Of a stretch of DNA of 64,000 nucleotides, positions 15,655 through 29,159 are shown in pieces (position 1 is the stretch's first letter; each line of letters opens with the position of its first letter). The stretch covers positions 64,001 through 128,000 of the forward strand of contig JAWLBL010000007.1 in the NCBI GenBank assembly GCA_041687695.1, written 5' to 3'. Under the pieces are notes generated by a model. The model saw nothing but the letters and a program-made list of their open reading frames with translations. It had not been told where the DNA came from and did no database searches. Both the position numbers and the translations under genes were made by a program. Origin of the DNA: Myxococcota bacterium. Lineage in GTDB: Bacteria > Myxococcota_A > UBA9042 > PHBI01 > JAWLBL01.

Positions 15655-16905
15655 TCACCAGGTGAACGCGCCCGCCACTCCTGGCGCGAAGGTGCGCCGG
15701 CCGGCCGCGTCGACGCCGCCGTCCATCAGGGTCGGTGCCAGCCGGAGGGCGGTCACCGGCTGGTCGGGCGCGTCGAAGTCGCGTGTCACGATGGCGGCGA
15801 GCCCCAGGCCGACGACCGCCCCGCCCGCCACGAGCGCGGCCATGGTCTCTCCGTCGAAGTCGTCGCCCTGGACGATCGACGACACCGCGACGCCGCCCAG
15901 CATGCCGCCCAGACCACCCAGATCGATGAAGAGCACCCGGGCGCGGCTCATCTTGACCTGCGTCGCCAGGACCGCCGCGCCCGCGGTGCCGACGAGCGAG
16001 CCGAACAGCATGGTGCCCGTGAAGTCGTCGTCGTGCTGCAGATCGGCGGCCCCCGCGATGAGCGCGCCCAGGATCCCTCCCCACAGGCCGCCCGAGTGGA
16101 TGAGCGCGACGTCACCGCGCGAGGCCCCCGCGTAGTGGGCGCCCAGGCCGCCGCCGAGGCCGGTCAGCGCACCCATCGACCACACGAGGGTCGCGGCCTG
16201 CTCGGTGGTGTCGTCGAGGTCGAAGGCCTCCTGGGCGAGCAGCCCCCAGAACGTGCCCAGCTGCAGGCCCGCGTTGATGCCCGCGGCGGTGCCCCCGCGC
16301 AGCGGCGTGTCCATGTGGTCCAGGGCGTAGGCCCCCAGGGCCCCCGCAGCGCCCGACAGGAAGGACAAGGGGACGACGACATCCTCGTCGAGGTCCATCA
16401 TGACGCCGAACACGTACGCGCCGGTCCACGCGCCGAACACCGACATGTTGATGTAGGTCTCGGCGATGGTCTCGGAGTCGGCCTCGGCGCGCGGGTCGCG
16501 GCTGCTGCGGACGACGGGCGCGTCCGGCGGCGGGACCCAGTCCCCGGGCCCGGTGCGGGTGGGGGGGACGCCGACGAGGGGCCCGTTCGGCGCGAGGGCG
16601 CCACGCTCGAGGGCGACGAGCAGCTTGTCGATGACCCCCTCGAGCCAGTGGCCGGGGCCGATGACGCCGCGCGCCGTGTCGAGGTGGTCGCGCGCGCCGG
16701 CGCGGTCGCCGCGGGCCCAGGCGTCCGCCGCCAGCTCGAGCGCCCGCCGGGCGGCCAGGGGCACCTCCTGCGACGGTGGGGCGGGCGGTGGGGCGGGCGG
16801 GTGGACGATCGGCGGGGCGGTCTCCTGGGCCCGGGCCGTCCCGGTCAGCGCGCAGGGCAGGCAGGGGACCAACGTGAGGGCGACGAACGCCGCGACGAGG
16901 CGCAT
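15655..16905 (-). CDS. Hypothetical exported Gly-rich hydrophobic protein
   Basis: Signal peptide MRLVAAFVALTL; Pro-rich linker; many GxxxG helices; terminal aromatic residue (AGAFTW). Confidence 0.75.
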   Translation of the reverse strand: MRLVAAFVALTLVPCLPCALTGTARAQETAPPIVHPPAPPPAPPSQEVPLAARRALELAADAWARGDRAGARDHLDTARGVIGPGHWLEGVIDKLLVALERGALAPNGPLVGVPPTRTGPGDWVPPPDAPVVRSSRDPRAEADSETIAETYINMSVFGAWTGAYVFGVMMDLDEDVVVPLSFLSGAAGALGAYALDHMDTPLRGGTAAGINAGLQLGTFWGLLAQEAFDLDDTTEQAATLVWSMGALTGLGGGLGAHYAGASRGDVALIHSGGLWGGILGALIAGAADLQHDDDFTGTMLFGSLVGTAGAAVLATQVKMSRARVLFIDLGGLGGMLGGVAVSSIVQGDDFDGETMAALVAGGAVVGLGLAAIVTRDFDAPDQPVTALRLAPTLMDGGVDAAGRRTFAPGVAGAFTW

Positions 16906-17098
16906 GGGGGCTCCCGAGAGACGTCGATGCAGCGGAGAGGGAGACGAGGCGGCCCATCCTAGCGGCCCAGGGCGACCCCCGCCACAACCGCCGCAGGGGC
17001 GCTGGCGGTGCGTCCGACGCAAGTGGCTGAAATTGACCGCCTTCCGGTCGCGTGCTACCGCCCGGGCCCTGCGCCCAACCCCGGCCCTGGAGTCCGTC

Positions 17099-19150
17099 AT
17101 GTCGCCTCGCCCGTCTCCGTTCGGTCCCGTCCTGGTGGCGTCTTGCCTGGCCGCCGCCGTGACCCTGCCGGCGTCCGAGGCCGCGGCCGCCGCCGACGTC
17201 CAGCTGTTCTGGGTCGACACGGCGGCGAAGGTCGTCCGGACCGGCGACCCCGACGGCGCCTCGGCCCAGAACGTCGTCGGGACCCCGGCGGTCGCAGGCC
17301 GCCTGATCCTCGATCCCGCCGCCGGTCACCTGTACTTCAGCGGCATCGGCGGCGCGAGCTACGAGGTCCGCCGTGCCGACCTGGACGGCGACGGCGCGGG
17401 CCTGGTCGCCCAGACCGGCGCGGGCAACATCGCCCCCTTCGCGGTCGACCCGAAGGCGCAGCGCGTCTTCTTCGCCGACTTCGACGCCCTGCGCCGCATG
17501 GGTTTTGGCGACAGCGGGTCTGAGATCATCGCGCCCGGCTTCCCGGACGCGTGGTCCACCCAGACCTACGGCCTGGACTGGCACGCCGCCTCGGGGCGCC
17601 TCTTCTGGCTCGCCGCCGAGTACCTGGGCGGCCCGCCCGGCCGCTGCCGCCTCACGTCGATGCTACCGGACGGGTCCGACCCGCAGGTGCTGTTCGAGGA
17701 GGTCGGCGCCTGCACGGGCGAGGGGCTGGTCGCCACGGACGACGGGGTCTACTTCGTGGCGGAGGGGCACATCCAGCGGGTGGATCACGACGGCGCTGGG
17801 CCCGAGGTGCTGGTCGCGGACGCGGCGGCCAAGAGCCTGGACGTGGATCTCGAGGGGCCGCACCTGTACTGGCTGACCAGCGACTCGGTGCGCCGTGCCG
17901 GGCTGGACGGGTCGTCGCCCGAGACGCTGTTCGCGCTCAGCGCCGCGGCGAGCCTCCGCGTCTACCGGCAGCCGCCGCCCTGCGAGCTCGCCACGCACGA
18001 GGACGGGACGGCGACCCTGACCTGCGGCGCGACCAGCTTCACGCTCGAGAGCGGGGCGAACGCCCTGGTCGCGGCGACGGCGGTCGAGGCGGGCGAGCCC
18101 TGCGCGTTCGGCGGCCACCGGGTGCAAGTGGGCGCGGATGACGGCTCGGGCGGAGCGATCGCCAAGGACGGGGTGCTGCAGGCCGGCGAGGTCGACCAGA
18201 CCTTCTACGCCTGCGACGGCGCGCCGGGCGCCGACGGAGCGGCGGGGGTGAGCGCGCTGGTCGAGGTGAGCGCGCTGGAGGCCGGCGACCCGCTGTGTCC
18301 GGCCGGTGGGCAGTGGGTGGCCTTCGGGCTGGACGCCGACGGCGACGGGGCGCTGCAGGCCGGCGAGGTCGCGGGTGGCGAGGCGGTCTGCCACGGCGAG
18401 GACGGCGCCCCGGGGGCCGCGGCCCTCGTCGTGTCGAGTCCGGTCGACGATCCCGAGGTGTGCCCGGCCGGCGGCTGGTCCATCGCGGTGGGCCACGACG
18501 CCGACGGCGACGGGACGCTGGGCGAGGGCGAGGTCACGCACGAGGCCGTGGTCTGTCACGGCGCGCCCGGCGAGGACGGCAAGTCCGCGCTGCTGGTGGT
18601 CACGGCGCTGCCCGCAGGTGACGCGGCGTGCCCGAACGGCGGGCAGCGGGTCGAGGGCGGCGTCGACGCCGACGGCGACGGTCAGCTGGCGGCGGCCGAG
18701 GTGACGCAGTCGGCGGTCGTGTGCCATGGGGCCGAGGGCGCCGACGGGGTCCCGGCGGCCGTCGCGACCACGGCGTTGGCGGCGGGCGAGGGCGGGTGCG
18801 CGCAGGGCGGCTGGCGGGTCGACGTGGGGCTCGATCTCGACGGCGACGGCGCGCTGGACGCCGACGAGATCACGGCGAGCGCGGCGCTGTGCCACGGCGC
18901 CGACGGGCAGGACGGCGCGGCGGGCGACCCCGGGCCTGGCGGGGGCGCGTGCACGGTCGTCGATCACGGCGACGGGTCCGCGTCGATGACCTGTCCCGAC
19001 GGGACCAGCGTGCGCTTTCTGACCGAGGCGCCAGCGGCGGACGGCGGGTGTCGCGGCGGCGCGGCCCCGGTGGCGCCTGGACTCGCGGTGCTGGGGCTGG
19101 CGCTGTGGGCGTGGCGACGGCGCGCCGCGGCGGCCGCGGACCCTGGCTGA
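17099..19150 (+). CDS. Surface protein: YWTD/LDLR-like beta-propeller, five Cys/DxDGDG repeats, MYXO-CTERM-like tail
   Basis: LFWVD, LYFS, LFWL and LYWL blades; repeats C-x-x-GG...G-x-D-x-DGDG-x-L-x3-E; tail GGCRGG...LALWAWRRR. Confidence 0.85.
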   Translation: MSPRPSPFGPVLVASCLAAAVTLPASEAAAAADVQLFWVDTAAKVVRTGDPDGASAQNVVGTPAVAGRLILDPAAGHLYFSGIGGASYEVRRADLDGDGAGLVAQTGAGNIAPFAVDPKAQRVFFADFDALRRMGFGDSGSEIIAPGFPDAWSTQTYGLDWHAASGRLFWLAAEYLGGPPGRCRLTSMLPDGSDPQVLFEEVGACTGEGLVATDDGVYFVAEGHIQRVDHDGAGPEVLVADAAAKSLDVDLEGPHLYWLTSDSVRRAGLDGSSPETLFALSAAASLRVYRQPPPCELATHEDGTATLTCGATSFTLESGANALVAATAVEAGEPCAFGGHRVQVGADDGSGGAIAKDGVLQAGEVDQTFYACDGAPGADGAAGVSALVEVSALEAGDPLCPAGGQWVAFGLDADGDGALQAGEVAGGEAVCHGEDGAPGAAALVVSSPVDDPEVCPAGGWSIAVGHDADGDGTLGEGEVTHEAVVCHGAPGEDGKSALLVVTALPAGDAACPNGGQRVEGGVDADGDGQLAAAEVTQSAVVCHGAEGADGVPAAVATTALAAGEGGCAQGGWRVDVGLDLDGDGALDADEITASAALCHGADGQDGAAGDPGPGGGACTVVDHGDGSASMTCPDGTSVRFLTEAPAADGGCRGGAAPVAPGLAVLGLALWAWRRRAAAAADPG

Positions 19151-19771: not shown

Positions 19772-20866
19772 TCATAGCGCGGCGCCCGCCGGCTGGCCAC
19801 CACGCCGCTGCTGCGCGTCGCGGGCCCGCTCGATCTTCTCGCGCGCGCGCCGCTCGTCGGTGGCGTCGGGCTCGGGGGGCTCGTGCAGGAGGTGGGCGTC
19901 CGACTCGAGGCTGAGCGTCACGAGGACGGCGAAGTGATCGGAGCCGCAGCGCGGTAGGCGCGCGAGGCCGGCCAGGCGGAAGTGGGGAGAGTGGAAGACG
20001 TGGTCGAGGGGGAAGCGGACGAGGGGGTTGGCGGCGTGGTAGGTGTTGAGCATGCGCCGGCCGCGCCGCGGGTCGAGCAGGCCGCTCATCTTCTGGAAGT
20101 GGCGGGTCGTCTCGGACCAGGCGACGTCGTTCATGTCGCCGGCGACGACCACGGGGCGAGGGCTGTCGACGACCTCGCGCCCGAGGACGAGCAGCTCGGC
20201 GTCGCGCTCGATGGTGTCGGTGTCCTCCTGGGGGGCGGGCGGGCGCGGGTGCATGCAGCTGAGCCGGACGTGCTCGCCGGAGGGCAGGGAGAGCGTCGCG
20301 TGGATCGAGGGGATGTCGGGCTCGACCAGGTAGCGCACCTCGAAGTCGATGAGGCGCAGGCGCGACAGGAGCAGCATCCCGTAGGTGTTGTCCTGCGGCA
20401 CGGAGACGGCGTGCGGGTAGAGGGCTTCGAGCGTCGCCGCCTGCTCGGCCCACCAGGCGTCGACCTCGAGGGCGACGACGCAGTCCGCGCCGGAGCCGGA
20501 CACCATGTCGCGCCAGGCCTGGCCCTCGCGGTTGCGCTGGAGGACGTTGGTGACCAGGACGCGCAGGGTCCGCTCGGGGTGGTCGGCGCGGGCGTCGTGG
20601 ACCTCCTTGGGCCAAAGCCGCGTGTAGGGCAGCATCCGTGCCAGCTGCACGAGCAGGGCGCCGCTCAGCACGGCCAGCGCCACGGCGTCGAGCGGCTCTC
20701 CCGGCCGGCGCGACAGGGCGAGGCCGACGAGGGCCAGCGCGCCGAGCGCCGTGAAGGTCGGGCGCGGGAAGTCGCAGACGCGGATCCACCACGCCTGGTG
20801 GCGCACGATGGGCAGGGCGGTGACCGCCACGACGAGGGCGGCCACGACGAGGGACGCGATACGCAT
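19772..20866 (-). CDS. Membrane-anchored endonuclease/exonuclease/phosphatase family protein
   Basis: TNV, ALE, HPRPP, GDMND, PLDHVF and GSDH motifs; N-terminal TM helices. Confidence 0.9.
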   Translation of the reverse strand: MRIASLVVAALVVAVTALPIVRHQAWWIRVCDFPRPTFTALGALALVGLALSRRPGEPLDAVALAVLSGALLVQLARMLPYTRLWPKEVHDARADHPERTLRVLVTNVLQRNREGQAWRDMVSGSGADCVVALEVDAWWAEQAATLEALYPHAVSVPQDNTYGMLLLSRLRLIDFEVRYLVEPDIPSIHATLSLPSGEHVRLSCMHPRPPAPQEDTDTIERDAELLVLGREVVDSPRPVVVAGDMNDVAWSETTRHFQKMSGLLDPRRGRRMLNTYHAANPLVRFPLDHVFHSPHFRLAGLARLPRCGSDHFAVLVTLSLESDAHLLHEPPEPDATDERRAREKIERARDAQQRRGGQPAGAAL

Positions 20867-21014
20867 CTAAGCTGACTCTGGGTGTTGGGAGGCTGCCCCA
20901 GCGTCGTCGCGGTGACCGCGGACGGCAAGGATGCGCCGCTGGCGGCGCCGGCGGTGACGTGCCAAGCTGCCGCCGGCCGCGAGCGCGCGCGGCCCGAGGA
21001 CCGGAGGAGTCGAG

Positions 21015-21392
21015 ATGGAGCGGAGCGGGTCGACCGAGCGTCCGTGGCTGCTGTGGGACGGCGATTGAGGCTTCTGACGCCGTAGCGCCGCCTGGGTCAG
21101 GCGGACCGACATCGAGGACCGGCTGTGGGTGGTGCCGTACCAGGAGGCGCCGTCGCCGCCCATGACGCCCGAGCTCGCGCGCGCCTGCCGACGTGCCATC
21201 CACGTCCTGCGCGCCGACGGGGCCGTGCTGCGCGCCGGACGCGCCGCCGTGTACGTCTTGGAGGTGCTGGGGTACCGCCGGACGGCCTGGTGCCTGAGGC
21301 GGCGACCGGTCATCTGGGCGGTCGAGCTGGGGTACTGGATCGTCGCGCGCAACCGTCGGCTCTTCTCGCGCGTCGCCTTCAAGCGCGAGTGA
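21015..21392 (+). CDS. DCC/DUF393 thiol-disulfide oxidoreductase, candidate selenoprotein with UxxU motif (125 aa)
   Basis: RBS GGAGGAG at 21003-21009 and ATG at 21015; reads MERSGSTERPWLLWDGD-TGA-GF-TGA-RRSAAWV... in frame with track ORF 21129..21392, which carries the DCC-like GYWIVARNR. Confidence 0.85.
21088..21104 (+). promoter_or_regulatory. Putative bacterial SECIS element
   Basis: Perfect 7-bp stem CCGCCTG/CAGGCGG with a GGT loop, starting 10 nt after the second in-frame TGA. Confidence 0.7.
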
Positions 21393-21405
21393 GCGCGCGC
21401 GGCGG

Positions 21406-24400
21406 CTAGGGCGCGACGGTGGTCTCGTTGACGGCCCAGGTCCGCCAGCCGTCGCCGAAGAAGGCGCCGGCCGCGGAGTCGTCGAAGTCCATGCCGTCGG
21501 CGGTGGCGGCCCGCATGATGGTCATCGGCTTCAACCCGGGCGCGAGGCCGGCCTTGCCGGCTCCGGGGACCAGGTCGGGCAGGGTCACCGACGTCAGATC
21601 GCCGTCGGCCCAGACCGTCCACTCGGTGTAGGGGATGGTGACGAGCATCCCGCAGATGGTGCACGGCGGGGTCTGGGCGTCGAACGTCACCATCTGTAGA
21701 TCCGGCTCGGCCGAGGGCCTGACCTGCCACGACACGACATCGGAGCCGTGCGGCCCGGGCTGGAACGAGATGTGCTCGGGGATGGCCAGCATGGGCCCGA
21801 GGACCAGCTCGCGAGAGCCCATGGCCCAGACGACGTCGTCGGTGCCCGCCACCGCCAGCAGGGCCCCTCGGTGCTGCTGGGGCGAGCGGTCGCGCCACTT
21901 GCCGGCCTCGAGCTCGATCACCCGGCCGCCGACCCCGACCGCAAAGACCTCGTCAGGCCCGCGGCCCCACACGCCCATCAGGGTCGACGTGGTCGGCGTC
22001 TTCATCACCACCGGGGCCTCGCCGGGGCGCCAGGTCGCGACCGTGCCGGCCTCGCCCACGGCGTACAGGCGGAAGTCCCCCGCGTCCTCGACCCCCCAGA
22101 CGGCGTTGAGCGACGGCTGACCGGGCACGGTCGAGGTCGTCCACTGGGCGCCGTCCCAATGGCCCACCCAGCCCTGGGCTCCGACGACCCACAGGTCGCC
22201 GGTCGCGCCCTCGTCGACGCGTCCCCACACGGCGCGCACCTTCACCGGGGCCGTGAACGCGGTCGCCCAGGTGTCCGCGTGGTAGCGCAGCACGTGATTG
22301 CCGCCGACCGCCCAGGCCTCGTCCGCCGAGGCGACCCACACCCCGGTCAGCGTGATGTCGACTCCGGTCTCGCGCTGCGTCCAGACGGTGTCGCCGAGGT
22401 GCGTCGCGACGCCGCGCTCGCCGGCGGCCACGCCGACTCCGGGCGCGAGCACATGCACCGCGTGCAGGTCGACCTGGGTCCCCGACGGCTGGTGGGCCCA
22501 GTAGCCGTCGCCGATGCTCCGGACGACCAGCCCGCCGTCGCCGACGGCGTAGACGGCGTCACCCGCGCTGGACAGGCCGCGGACGTCCTCGGTCGGCGCG
22601 GGCGCGCTGGCGGTCCAGCCGTCGGGGCCGCGCCGCCAGGCGGTGTCGCTGCGCAGCCGCGGCAGATCGGTGTCCAGGATGGCGCTGTAGGCGTTGGGGG
22701 TCTGCGCCGACTGGACCACCGCGTACAGCGTGTAGGTGGCGTCGTGCAGCGTCCCGGTGAGCTGGCTGGGCACCCGAGCGCTCAGGGGCGCGCGGCCGGT
22801 GGCGAACATGGGCGGGAACTCGAGGACGCCCTCGCCGCCGAGATCGAGGAACAGGCGCGCCTGCACCGACTCGAGCGCCGTCGGACCGAGGTCGGGGCGG
22901 TCGAGCTCTATGGTGACCTGCTCGTTCAGCGGCCGGTCGATGGCGACCTCCATGGTGACCACCTGGCCGTTCGTGGTCGCGCTGAGGCCACGGGTGACGC
23001 CGAGCATCTCGGGGCGGAAGCCCTTGGGCGTCATCACGCCCGCCCAGCAGAAGATCGCGTAGTCGCCCAGGCGCGACGTGAACGTGAACTTGCCATCGGG
23101 GCCGACCGGGACCCCCGGGAAGGGGTAGGCGTCGATGGAGCCGACGCCGGGGTTGGTGATGTCGCAGTAGATCTGAAGGTCTCCCGGCGACGGGACGCAC
23201 TGCAGCGCCGCGACGCCCGTGAGCGGCAGGCAGCTGAAGCCGGTCGGGCAGTCCACGTCCGCCGTGCAGTCGGTGGTGCAGTGCGAGCCCTGGCCGGGCA
23301 GGGACGAGCAGCGGCCGCCGGGGCACTCGTCGTGGTCGTCGCAGCTGAGGCACAGCGGCGAGGGCGGCCCCAGCTGGTCGTCGCAGCGGCCCCAGGGCTT
23401 CTTGACCCCCTTGACGCCGGTGTCCACCACGCCGTCGGACTTGCCGGACTGCCCCGGGGGCTGGTCGCACGGGATGTCCAGATCGGTGCAGTGCGGGATG
23501 GTGTCCACCGCCAGCGTGACGTTGGTCGCGTCGAAGCCGACCAGCGACGAGGTCGTGTGGTTGTGGAGCGTGGCCGAGACCTGCTGGTCGCCGACCAGCT
23601 CGGGGCCGCTGAACGTGATGAGCCCGTCCGCGTTCGTGAAGCCCTGGTGGGGCGTCGACGGGTCGTGGCCCAGCATCACGAAGGCGCCGGCGACCCGCCC
23701 GCCCGAGAAGCGGTCGACCACCGTCACGTGCACGTTGCGGGCGACCGGGCCACCCCAGGTCCCTGGCGCGCTGCCCGGATCGTAATAGGTGAACCCCTTG
23801 GCCAGCTTCGCCGCGGCCGTGTTGGAGGTCAGCACGAGGACGTCGGCGGGGCCCTCGAAGCCGGGCGGCGTCTTCGCCTCGAGGCGCCCCTGCGACAGCA
23901 CCACCGCGTTCGTCGCCGGGGCGTCGCCGACACGCACCTGCGAGCCGGGGAGGAAGCCGTTGCCGAAGACGGTCACGAGGTCGCCGCCGGCGGTGCTGCC
24001 GTGGGGCGGGTCGACGAGCCAGATCGCCGCGGGCGCCTGGTACTGGAAGCCGCCGAAGAGCGTGTCCTGCTGGCCGCCATCGAAGACCGTCACGTTGGCG
24101 AGGCCCGGCGTCCCCGGCGGCGTGGTGATGGTCAGGGTCTGGGCGTCGACGAAGGTGACCTGGGCGGCGAGGGCGCCGACGCGGACTTCGGTGGCGGGCG
24201 TGAAGCCCGCGCCAGAGAGGGTCGCCTGGGTGCCGCCCGCGGCGGGCCCGAAGATCGGCGTGATGTCGTGGAGGCGGGGGGAGGGGAGGTAGGTGTAGGC
24301 CGCGTCCAGGACGCTCGGCTCGCCGCCGCTGCCGACCGAGACCGCGACGGCGCCCTCGGCCAGCGCCGTCGGGGCGGCTACGACGACCGTGTGCGCGTCC

Positions 24401-25521
24401 AGGTCCACCGAGACCAGGGGCGCGACCCGGTCGCCGAACCGGACCTCGACTTCAGCCATGTGGGAGAGCCCGAGGACTCCCAGGGTCACCAGGTTCCCGC
24501 CGCCCATTGGGCCCGAGGCCGGGAAGACGGTCAGCAGCTCGGGCGCGTCGGCCGCCACGTCGTCGAGGTAGGTGTAGGCGCGCTCGGCGGTCTCGCTGCC
24601 CCAGGCCGTGCTGACGACGAGATCCACCGCGCCCGGCTCGGCCGCTGCGGGGGCGAGCACCTCGAGCTCGCCGGGCCCCACGATCTGCACCTCGTCGCAC
24701 TCGCGACCATCCAGGGTCACCAGCAGCGGCGCGACGAACCCTCGCCCGAGCACCGTGACGCGGTTGTCGCCCGCCAGCGGACCGACCGCGGGCTGCACCG
24801 AGACCACGCGCGGCGCCTCGAAGTAGACGTACCCCTCGGCGAGGCGGCCGACCCCGAGGTCGCTCGCCACGCGCACGTCGACGGGGCCCGGCGTCGCCGT
24901 GTCGGGCGTGGTCGCGACGATCGTCTCGCCGTCCAGGACCTCGACGCCGATGGCCAGCCTGTCGCCGAACACGACCCGGGCGCCGGCCGTGAAGCCCGAC
25001 CCGGTGATCGTGACCGTCTCGCCGCCCAGCACGTGGCCCGACGGAGGCGTGACGGCGCCGACCGTGACCGGCTCTTCGAACACGTAGGCTGCGTCCAGGC
25101 GGGCGACCTTGCCGCTCTTGTGCACCACGGTGACGTCGACCACCCCGTGCGGGCGCGGCGGCGTGCTGGCCACGATGAGGCCGTCGGTCAGGGCCAGCCA
25201 GTCGGGCGCGGGCGTCTCGCCGAAGTAGACGACCGCCGTGTCCTTCAACCCCGCGCCGAACAGCGTCACCTCGGTGAAGCCCGCGGTGGGGCCGCGGTCG
25301 GGCGCGAGGCCGGTCAGCACGAAGCCGGACGGCTTGGGGGCGTCCGGGCCGGCGTCGTCGGCGACGTCCGGCGCGCCGGTGTCTGGAGCGTCGACGTCTG
25401 GGTGCGCGTCGCCCTTGGAGGGGGGCGATCCCGCGACCGGGTCGGAGCAGGCCTGAAGGCCGCCGAGCAAGCACGCGAGGACGGCGAGCGCGACGAGGTG
25501 GCGGGTGGAGCGCTGGTTCAC
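21406..25521 (-). CDS. Large lipoprotein with six IPT/TIG domains, a Cys-rich insert and beta-propeller repeats
   Basis: GTG start at 25521 with RBS; lipobox LQAC; six P-x-x-G...GG-x-x-VT repeats; L-x-x-VWG...VG-x-x-G propeller repeats. Confidence 0.88.
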   Translation of the reverse strand: MNQRSTRHLVALAVLACLLGGLQACSDPVAGSPPSKGDAHPDVDAPDTGAPDVADDAGPDAPKPSGFVLTGLAPDRGPTAGFTEVTLFGAGLKDTAVVYFGETPAPDWLALTDGLIVASTPPRPHGVVDVTVVHKSGKVARLDAAYVFEEPVTVGAVTPPSGHVLGGETVTITGSGFTAGARVVFGDRLAIGVEVLDGETIVATTPDTATPGPVDVRVASDLGVGRLAEGYVYFEAPRVVSVQPAVGPLAGDNRVTVLGRGFVAPLLVTLDGRECDEVQIVGPGELEVLAPAAAEPGAVDLVVSTAWGSETAERAYTYLDDVAADAPELLTVFPASGPMGGGNLVTLGVLGLSHMAEVEVRFGDRVAPLVSVDLDAHTVVVAAPTALAEGAVAVSVGSGGEPSVLDAAYTYLPSPRLHDITPIFGPAAGGTQATLSGAGFTPATEVRVGALAAQVTFVDAQTLTITTPPGTPGLANVTVFDGGQQDTLFGGFQYQAPAAIWLVDPPHGSTAGGDLVTVFGNGFLPGSQVRVGDAPATNAVVLSQGRLEAKTPPGFEGPADVLVLTSNTAAAKLAKGFTYYDPGSAPGTWGGPVARNVHVTVVDRFSGGRVAGAFVMLGHDPSTPHQGFTNADGLITFSGPELVGDQQVSATLHNHTTSSLVGFDATNVTLAVDTIPHCTDLDIPCDQPPGQSGKSDGVVDTGVKGVKKPWGRCDDQLGPPSPLCLSCDDHDECPGGRCSSLPGQGSHCTTDCTADVDCPTGFSCLPLTGVAALQCVPSPGDLQIYCDITNPGVGSIDAYPFPGVPVGPDGKFTFTSRLGDYAIFCWAGVMTPKGFRPEMLGVTRGLSATTNGQVVTMEVAIDRPLNEQVTIELDRPDLGPTALESVQARLFLDLGGEGVLEFPPMFATGRAPLSARVPSQLTGTLHDATYTLYAVVQSAQTPNAYSAILDTDLPRLRSDTAWRRGPDGWTASAPAPTEDVRGLSSAGDAVYAVGDGGLVVRSIGDGYWAHQPSGTQVDLHAVHVLAPGVGVAAGERGVATHLGDTVWTQRETGVDITLTGVWVASADEAWAVGGNHVLRYHADTWATAFTAPVKVRAVWGRVDEGATGDLWVVGAQGWVGHWDGAQWTTSTVPGQPSLNAVWGVEDAGDFRLYAVGEAGTVATWRPGEAPVVMKTPTTSTLMGVWGRGPDEVFAVGVGGRVIELEAGKWRDRSPQQHRGALLAVAGTDDVVWAMGSRELVLGPMLAIPEHISFQPGPHGSDVVSWQVRPSAEPDLQMVTFDAQTPPCTICGMLVTIPYTEWTVWADGDLTSVTLPDLVPGAGKAGLAPGLKPMTIMRAATADGMDFDDSAAGAFFGDGWRTWAVNETTVAP

Positions 25522-25829
25522 GGCGTCCTCTCGGGGCGGCGGCGGGAGGGGAGGCCGGCGTCGACGGCGGCCGCTCCGGCGCTGGCGGGCAGGTTCGTTG
25601 TCCGAAGGCGTCCGCGCGATCGTTCGAGCGGTCGAGGTCGGTGGGGTGGCACGAATCCTGCGGGTCGCGCGGGGTCGGCGCAAGGACCTGCGCCCCGTCC
25701 GGGCGGCCCTGTCTGCAGGGACGGGGGCGTTCGGAGTCCAGAACGCGCGCGGCGCGCACGCCGGGTGCGGCCCTGATGCACCCGGTCTCCGCGCCGACGC
25801 GGTCCCGGACGCGCCCCTGCGGGGCCGCG

Positions 25830-29159
<3,330 letters not shown>

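Follow-up and report, generated by a model that had tools for sequence, protein, structure and literature searches.

A conserved hairpin as the probable common SECIS element of two neighbouring in-frame UGA codons in a DCC1-like gene of a Myxococcota bacterium

The analysed window is a stretch of 64,000 nucleotides from a Myxococcota bacterium (NCBI GenBank assembly GCA_041687695.1, contig JAWLBL010000007.1, positions 64,001 to 128,000), and all coordinates without a contig or locus name refer to it. On the plus strand an ATG at 21015 opens a reading frame that extends to a TGA at 21390-21392, given read-through of two further TGA triplets at 21066-21068 and 21075-21077. We annotated the following features, reading the Shine-Dalgarno-like motif from the sequence and presuming its function:

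21003..21009, plus strand: Shine-Dalgarno-like GGAGGAG, 5 nt upstream of the ATG
21015..21392, plus strand: DCC1-like thiol-disulfide oxidoreductase gene (PF04134), 125 codons and a TGA stop, motif U-G-F-U when translated with TGA = U
21066..21068, plus strand: UGA1, at the site of the first CxxC cysteine, 19 nt to the hairpin and 26 nt to its loop
21075..21077, plus strand: UGA2, at the site of the second CxxC cysteine, 10 nt to the hairpin and 17 nt to its loop
21088..21104, plus strand: candidate SECIS minihelix CCGCCUG-GGU-CAGGCGG, loop at 21095-21097, codons Ala-Ala-Trp-Val-Arg-Arg, 7 bp, dG -11.2 kcal/mol
21390..21392, plus strand: terminal stop codon TGA, the end of the reading frame with TGA = U

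The 125-residue product matches the Pfam DCC1-like family PF04134 over residues 12-118 (E = 1.2e-12, 49.5 bits compared to a cut-off of 27.8), and none of the NCBIfam models matches it. The family motif DxxCxxC reads WDGD-U-GF-U in this protein, with the TGAs at both cysteine positions. Ordinary ORF calling breaks at UGA1 and reports only an 87-aa remnant (21129-21392). The original prediction had spoken of two UGAs three codons apart; the sequence contains them, and both are in frame in one ORF. Downstream of the terminal TGA we found no hairpin that fits the SECIS model. The gene lies alone on the plus strand; the genes that flank it, both on the minus strand, encode an Exo_endo_phos protein and an IPT/TIG protein. 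Neither a redox gene nor a selenium gene adjoins it, and a scan of 20800-21500 for promoters and terminators found none. The neighbours at 16466-19150 (plus strand) and 21406-26760 (minus strand) are large secreted-looking repeat proteins, one with five copies of DUF7151 and one with five IPT/TIG copies.

The position predicted for the hairpin, 10 nt after UGA2 with the loop 17 nt from UGA2 and 26 nt from UGA1, was confirmed by reading the sequence. Section 5 of PMC13188914 describes the bSECIS consensus as an upper stem of 4-16 bp capped by a 3-9 nt loop whose first or second nucleotide is a G, in most cases with G or U next to it, a UGA-to-loop distance of 16-37 nt and a minimum free energy (MFE) of -7.5 kcal/mol or lower. 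The DCC hairpin has a loop of 3 nt and a stem of 7 bp (5-7 bp among the 27 homologues described below). Its loop is GGU, and the first loop position is G in 27 of the 27 homologues. UGA2, at 17 nt, and UGA1, at 26 nt, both fall within the distance range of the consensus, and the MFE of the 17-mer is -11.2 kcal/mol. Taken alone, however, the hairpin is not above chance in a genome with a GC content of 73%. The fold of 21066-21110 has a z-score of -0.15, with 84 of 200 shuffles equally good, and that of 21060-21135 has a z-score of -1.33. Among 5000 random TGA triplets of the genome, 888 precede a hairpin in agreement with a simplified SECIS model; for 247 the model-fitting hairpin is at least as stable as the one in the DCC gene. 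A search with Rfam returned no SECIS match at the DCC hairpin. Scanning the whole genome for the core motif GCCTGNNNCAGGC gave 172 strand matches, and in-frame TGAs within a plausible gene were seen at the DCC site only. Two TGAs 9 nt apart near a core motif at C8:19291 are antisense to an apparent penicillin-binding-protein frame and were dismissed by eye. As the hairpin alone does not exceed chance, the case rests on the comparison of homologues.

A six-frame search of 101 relatives yielded two further genes with both TGAs in the same places (60% and 52% identity). The profile built from these three double-TGA genes was then run in six frames over 401 genomes of the phylum. Both motif codons were TGA in 10 genomes and the motif was CxxU in 2. 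One extra match with two TGAs (L202 in G251) was rejected because its TGAs lie outside the motif, and one match with a single TGA (L236 in G493) has a motif without U. Further loci were supplied by pattern scans of genome and metagenome contigs. One pattern demanded Cys at position 1; the second contained AAWVR, which biases the UxxU loci found by pattern scans towards the peptide encoded at the hairpin. No bias for the hairpin region affects the CxxU loci or the 10 UxxU genomes of the profile search. After removal of duplicates there were 27 distinct U forms (16 UxxU and 11 CxxU) and 135 distinct CxxC forms. The U forms occur in Myxococcota, Armatimonadota, Chloroflexota, Actinomycetota and Abditibacteriota. 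Position 2 is TGA in 27 of the 27 U forms, while position 1 is TGA in 16 distinct homologues and TGC or TGT in the CxxU and CxxC forms. Both UGAs thus align with the CxxC cysteines of the 135 Cys forms and make up Sec/Cys pairs. In the 16 double-TGA homologues both TGAs and the frame on either side are preserved, with synonymous changes around them. One homologue with the motif UPFU (L013:1495-2079 in G010) has no stop where its relatives end, and its open frame reaches 195 aa. We also computed a protein tree of 113 sequences from which the motif and hairpin columns had been dropped. The U forms appear scattered across this tree, but a single U clade is not rejected (p-AU 0.157). With 47 of the 109 forks open the tree is poorly resolved, so we make no claim about the order of CxxU and UxxU.

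The alignment of the 27 U forms is free of gaps between the motif and the end of the hairpin, and in all of them the core GCCUG-NNN-CAGGC is found in the same register. At pairs 3-7 (GCCUG/CAGGC) each of the 27 sequences has either the invariant pair or G-U. For the outer pair of columns 53 and 69 we observed CG in 11 sequences, UA in 4, UG in 2, GC in 1, GU in 1 and unpaired bases in 8. For columns 54 and 68 the corresponding counts were 23 CG, 2 UA and 2 unpaired. The CG/UA exchanges at these outer pairs include 8 cells changed on both sides, which was reached by none of 500 shuffles. Across the whole stem 94.7% of the cells are paired, and this value falls to 17.5-41.3% if the partner is shifted by 1-3 columns. 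With the greater part of the stem invariant, only the two outer pairs show true covariation, and the first of these is unpaired in 8 of the 27 sequences. The hairpin overlaps the codons of the conserved helix AAWVRR, so that its conservation is in part due to the protein. All 27 U forms encode the Arg of the 3' arm by AGG, a codon that makes up 3.8% of the Arg codons in 1504 long ORFs from the genome. The fixation of such a rare codon indicates a constraint on the RNA beyond the peptide alone. RNAalifold, applied to the region from -30 to +90 of the 27 U forms, predicted the DCC hairpin as the sole helix, in line with the earlier observation that the first TGA has no separate hairpin.

The Cys-only forms gave a different picture. 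The 135 distinct sequences retain on average 2.9 of the 7 pairs; six of them reach 6 pairs with weak energies, and the full 7 pairs are present in only one. This exception (L101, a Cys-Cys form on a metagenome contig with the motif at approximately 636-700) combines the complete hairpin CCGCTTGGGTCAGGCGG with the U-form peptide AAWVRR, and probably represents a recent Sec-to-Cys change. Another Cys form, L045, shows a half-decayed hairpin. Two computational checks proposed with the original prediction, conservation or covariation among TGA homologues and loss from Cys homologues, thus both favour a SECIS: the hairpin is conserved in 27 of 27 U forms and is far from equally present in Cys forms, with 1 full stem in 135. 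Conservation in the one group together with decay in the other lifts the hairpin above chance.

The loops of the 27 U forms are GGU in 21 cases, GAU in 4 and GUG in 2. All 16 UxxU forms have GGU (10 out of 10 in the unbiased set), whereas the CxxU loops are divided into 5 GGU, 4 GAU and 2 GUG. Fisher's exact test gives p = 0.0016 for all sequences and p = 0.012 for the unbiased ones, although the sequences are kin and hence not independent. The difference suggests that double duty might need the loop that binds SelB best.

The family also provides forms in which the hairpin follows one UGA only. In CxxU homologues the identical hairpin occurs 10 nt after the sole UGA, which identifies the element as the position-2 SECIS. 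Between these homologues and the UxxU forms the only difference is TGA in place of TGC at position 1, and the nucleotides around and between the UGAs are alike. We also searched 301 Chloroflexota genomes with PF04134 and examined 11 matches with an internal TGA. These revealed a sister DCC subfamily with the pattern FDGT-U-G-x-C/U-TR..ARW.RRRD and with UxxC as well as UxxU members. In the UxxC forms L238 and L240 the only UGA is at position 1; the hairpin begins 17-19 nt downstream and its loop is 25-27 nt away. The UxxU relatives L242-L245 have the same hairpin, its register unchanged. For instance, L238 and L243 are 69% identical over 98 aa and have the hairpin CGCGCUGG-GUCCG-CCGGCGCG in common. 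A further UxxC form (L237 in G435, FDGT-U-GFC) has a different hairpin of 16 bp located 10 nt after its UGA, and neither of the two opening nucleotides of its loop is a G. A hairpin in one fixed register thus occurs in nature with a near-spaced UGA only, with a far-spaced UGA only and with the two combined, which is the strongest comparative support for a single shared element. As there is no second conserved hairpin, one element most likely serves both UGAs.

The genome is equipped for selenocysteine insertion. Rfam detects one tRNA-Sec (78 bits, anticodon UCA), SelA is present, and SelB is a protein of 656 aa with EF-Tu, beta-barrel and winged-helix domains and no additional domain. ARAGORN reports 60 tRNAs, among them one SeC(tca) and one ordinary Cys(gca) of 74 nt. 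Neither program found a tRNA(ReC) or a second tRNA-Sec-like gene, the next Rfam matches being Leu, Ser and Trp tRNAs; unusual tRNAs can escape detection, and the assembly, in 63 contigs, has a completeness of 99.3%. A tRNA-Sec was detected in each of 20 other U-form genomes tested, including those from Chloroflexota (21 of 21 with the present one), against a background of 87 out of 151 in a sample of the phylum, the U-form genomes being kin and therefore non-independent. Weak second tRNA-Sec matches in the Chloroflexota genomes G496 and G668, considered as tRNA(ReC), turned out to be tRNA-Ser(GCU). The UxxU genome G265 (L217, L221) has two tRNA-Sec(UCA) on different contigs, with 71 and 63.7 bits, reflecting either duplication or contamination.

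A GC3-based scan for other in-frame TGAs located more than 50 codons from the gene start gave 112 candidates, of which only two were credible. One is an FdhA-type molybdopterin oxidoreductase (L235:326-380, G000:C12:137225) with the Sec site VCVSNQARIUHSATV, followed 11 nt after the UGA by a SECIS with a 7-bp stem, GGUGCCC-GGUCU-GGGCACC. The other is an AhpC/TSA peroxiredoxin (L249:202-204, G000:C36:64601; PF00578, E = 7.9e-30) with TGA at the peroxidatic Cys, FPKSFTGG-U-TAEC. Its candidate SECIS, GUCGCUC-CGUGA-GAGCGGC, begins 14 nt after the UGA, with 21 nt to the loop. Sec-peroxiredoxins of this kind are already catalogued. Considering the DCC, FdhA and peroxiredoxin sites together, SelB would act over 17, 18 and 21 nt in this organism, and over 26 nt as well if UGA1 is served.

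On these grounds the hairpin at 21088-21104 is very probably the SECIS of the DCC gene. The earlier description of it as SECIS-like thus gains weight from synonymous-site constraint in the TGA forms, loss in the Cys forms and the presence of the Sec machinery. The contrary view is that there is no recoding: the TGAs would be true stops or marks of a decayed gene, and the hairpin would be conserved merely through the AAWVRR peptide. The hairpin is indeed insignificant on its own and a standard ORF call ends at UGA1. Against this we have the maintenance of both TGAs and the flanking frame in 16 distinct homologues with synonymous changes nearby, the rare AGG in 27 of 27 sequences, the loss of the hairpin from the Cys forms and a tRNA-Sec in every host genome tested, which together make the absence of recoding highly improbable.

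The more difficult issue is UGA1. The hairpin could serve UGA2 only, with UGA1 decoded by near-cognate read-through as Trp or Cys, or by a Cys-charged, SelB-dependent tRNA(ReC), so that the product would be CxxU-like or heterogeneous. The 10-nt spacer at UGA2 is the classical one, whereas the 19 nt at UGA1 are off the optimum given by the 11-nt spacing reported for the fdhF minimal SECIS. Furthermore, according to the passages of PMC13582414 on UXXU hydrogenases, tRNA(ReC)-like genes occur in ∼56% of the genomes encoding them and one or both UGAs may be Cys; with such an enrichment one UGA could be read as Cys in some organisms. The present genome, however, has one tRNA-Sec(UCA), one ordinary tRNA-Cys(GCA) and no detected tRNA(ReC). 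The UxxC relatives in the DCC family depend on a far-spaced hairpin for their sole UGA, and the 26 nt from UGA1 to the loop lie inside the bSECIS range. The retention of UGA1 in 16 distinct sequences from several phyla would also be hard to explain if it were merely an inefficient Cys codon. We therefore regard service of UGA2 only as unlikely. Another explanation is that the hairpin is necessary and insufficient, with UGA1 aided by a second weak or non-hairpin element such as codon context or a 4-bp GGCG/CGCC helix enclosing both UGAs. RNAalifold does add this helix (columns 55-58 and 81-84) when run from -60 to +90 on 17 UxxU sequences alone, and the contrast between GGU in 16 of 16 UxxU loops and the mixed CxxU loops hints at extra demands. 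The helix is nearly devoid of covariation (term -0.16), however, both of its arms are conserved codons, it is missing from the 27-sequence consensus and the nucleotides around the UGAs are the same in CxxU and UxxU forms. A contribution of this kind appears improbable.

We consider it probable that one hairpin directs predicted SelB-dependent Sec insertion at both UGAs and thereby gives a U-G-F-U active site. This best reading agrees with the original suggestion that a single hairpin may serve two UGAs, and what speaks for it is the lack of a second conserved hairpin and the occurrence of either spacing alone in the CxxU and UxxC relatives. The process might be pictured as follows. With UGA1 in the A site and the hairpin 19 nt downstream, SelB-GTP-Sec-tRNASec bound to the GGU loop would deliver the first Sec. 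Three codons on, UGA2 would have reached the A site and the hairpin would stand at the mRNA entrance, 10 nt downstream, in the classical fdhF-like geometry. The second Sec would then come from another SelB ternary complex, or from the first SelB re-loaded on the hairpin, before the ribosome unwinds this structure. In its complete form we offer this model tentatively, as a possibility: a 17-nt minihelix would support two SelB deliveries nine nt apart, with SelB re-loaded or exchanged within three elongation cycles at the 19- and 10-nt spacers; the invariant GGU loop of the UxxU forms would reflect tighter SelB binding for double duty; and the product, a member of a family that selenoprotein catalogues do not list, would contain a diselenide redox centre.

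The DCC family constitutes a natural series of CxxC, CxxU, UxxC and UxxU forms with the hairpin in a fixed register, and is hence suited to measuring the reach of SelB (10 compared to 19 nt) and the rapid re-use of one hairpin. It is also a putative selenoprotein family, shortened by gene callers, that is now flagged. PF04134, DCC and DUF393 are absent both from the 119-family catalogue in Table 1 of PMC13188914 and from the rest of that review. Full-text searches of the literature gave nothing relevant on DCC, DUF393 or PF04134 selenoproteins, although the supplements of selenoproteome papers may hold an entry. Our literature search likewise found no experimental test of one bacterial SECIS serving two nearby UGAs.

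The DCC hairpin resembles the SECIS of the E. coli fdhF type in that it is a stem-loop inside the coding region after the UGA, with a short helix and a small loop that opens with G(G/U). The 11-nt spacing is strict in E. coli fdhF. Its minimal SECIS, described in part in PMC8659212, includes U17, G23 and U24, and the review gives an 11-nt spacing for it. The fdhF-type elements, including that of FdhA, have a spacer of 11 nt compared to 10 nt at UGA2 of the DCC gene. In the DCC gene one helix follows two UGAs 9 nt apart with UGA1 19 nt upstream, and the hairpin differs from the fdhF type in its 3-nt loop and in having neither a bulged U nor a conserved lower stem. It is similar to the FdhA SECIS of its own genome in the 7-bp stem and the loop starting with GGU. 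In eukaryotic selenoprotein P multiple UGAs are served by few SECIS elements in the 3'-UTR, which act at a distance via SBP2/eEFSec. The DCC gene shares with it several UGAs for few SECIS elements, whereas the DCC element lies in the coding region and would be unwound by the ribosome a few codons after its use.

Closer parallels exist among bacterial UxxU proteins. UxxU motifs were first noted in GOS data, as described in the relevant passage of PMC2398784, and Table 1 of PMC13188914 lists a Prx-like thiol:disulfide oxidoreductase (PF00578), the metal-binding NF041115 and FmdB (TIGR02605). Like the DCC protein, the catalogued UxxU selenoproteins are predicted to function in redox reactions or metal binding and to have two Sec at a distance of three residues. 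The passages on them do not address the way in which two adjacent UGAs are served. For Group 4 [NiFeSe] hydrogenases, the passages of PMC13582414 (2026) devoted to them report 16 UXXU sequences, propose that one downstream SECIS may direct the decoding of both UGAs, describe SelB as canonical and cite Vargas-Rodriguez 2018 for tRNA(ReC)-assisted UGA-to-Cys recoding. The two cases are alike in that the UGAs replace CXXC cysteines, CXXU and UXXU relatives have one conserved downstream SECIS and SelB is canonical. They differ in protein family and in the role of the motif, which is a metal ligand in the hydrogenases and a redox disulfide in the DCC proteins, and tRNA(ReC) is frequent in the hydrogenase UXXU genomes, whereas none was detected in the DCC genome. 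Beyond the hydrogenase case as set out there, the DCC series adds UxxC relatives whose hairpin keeps this register. The single-SECIS principle is thus already in print as a proposal. The original prediction had called one element for two UGAs mechanistically unusual for bacteria, and this assessment is not supported: distances of 17 and 26 nt are within the bSECIS range, UxxU selenoproteins are catalogued, and the DCC arrangement is a further case of a known layout rather than a mechanistic oddity.
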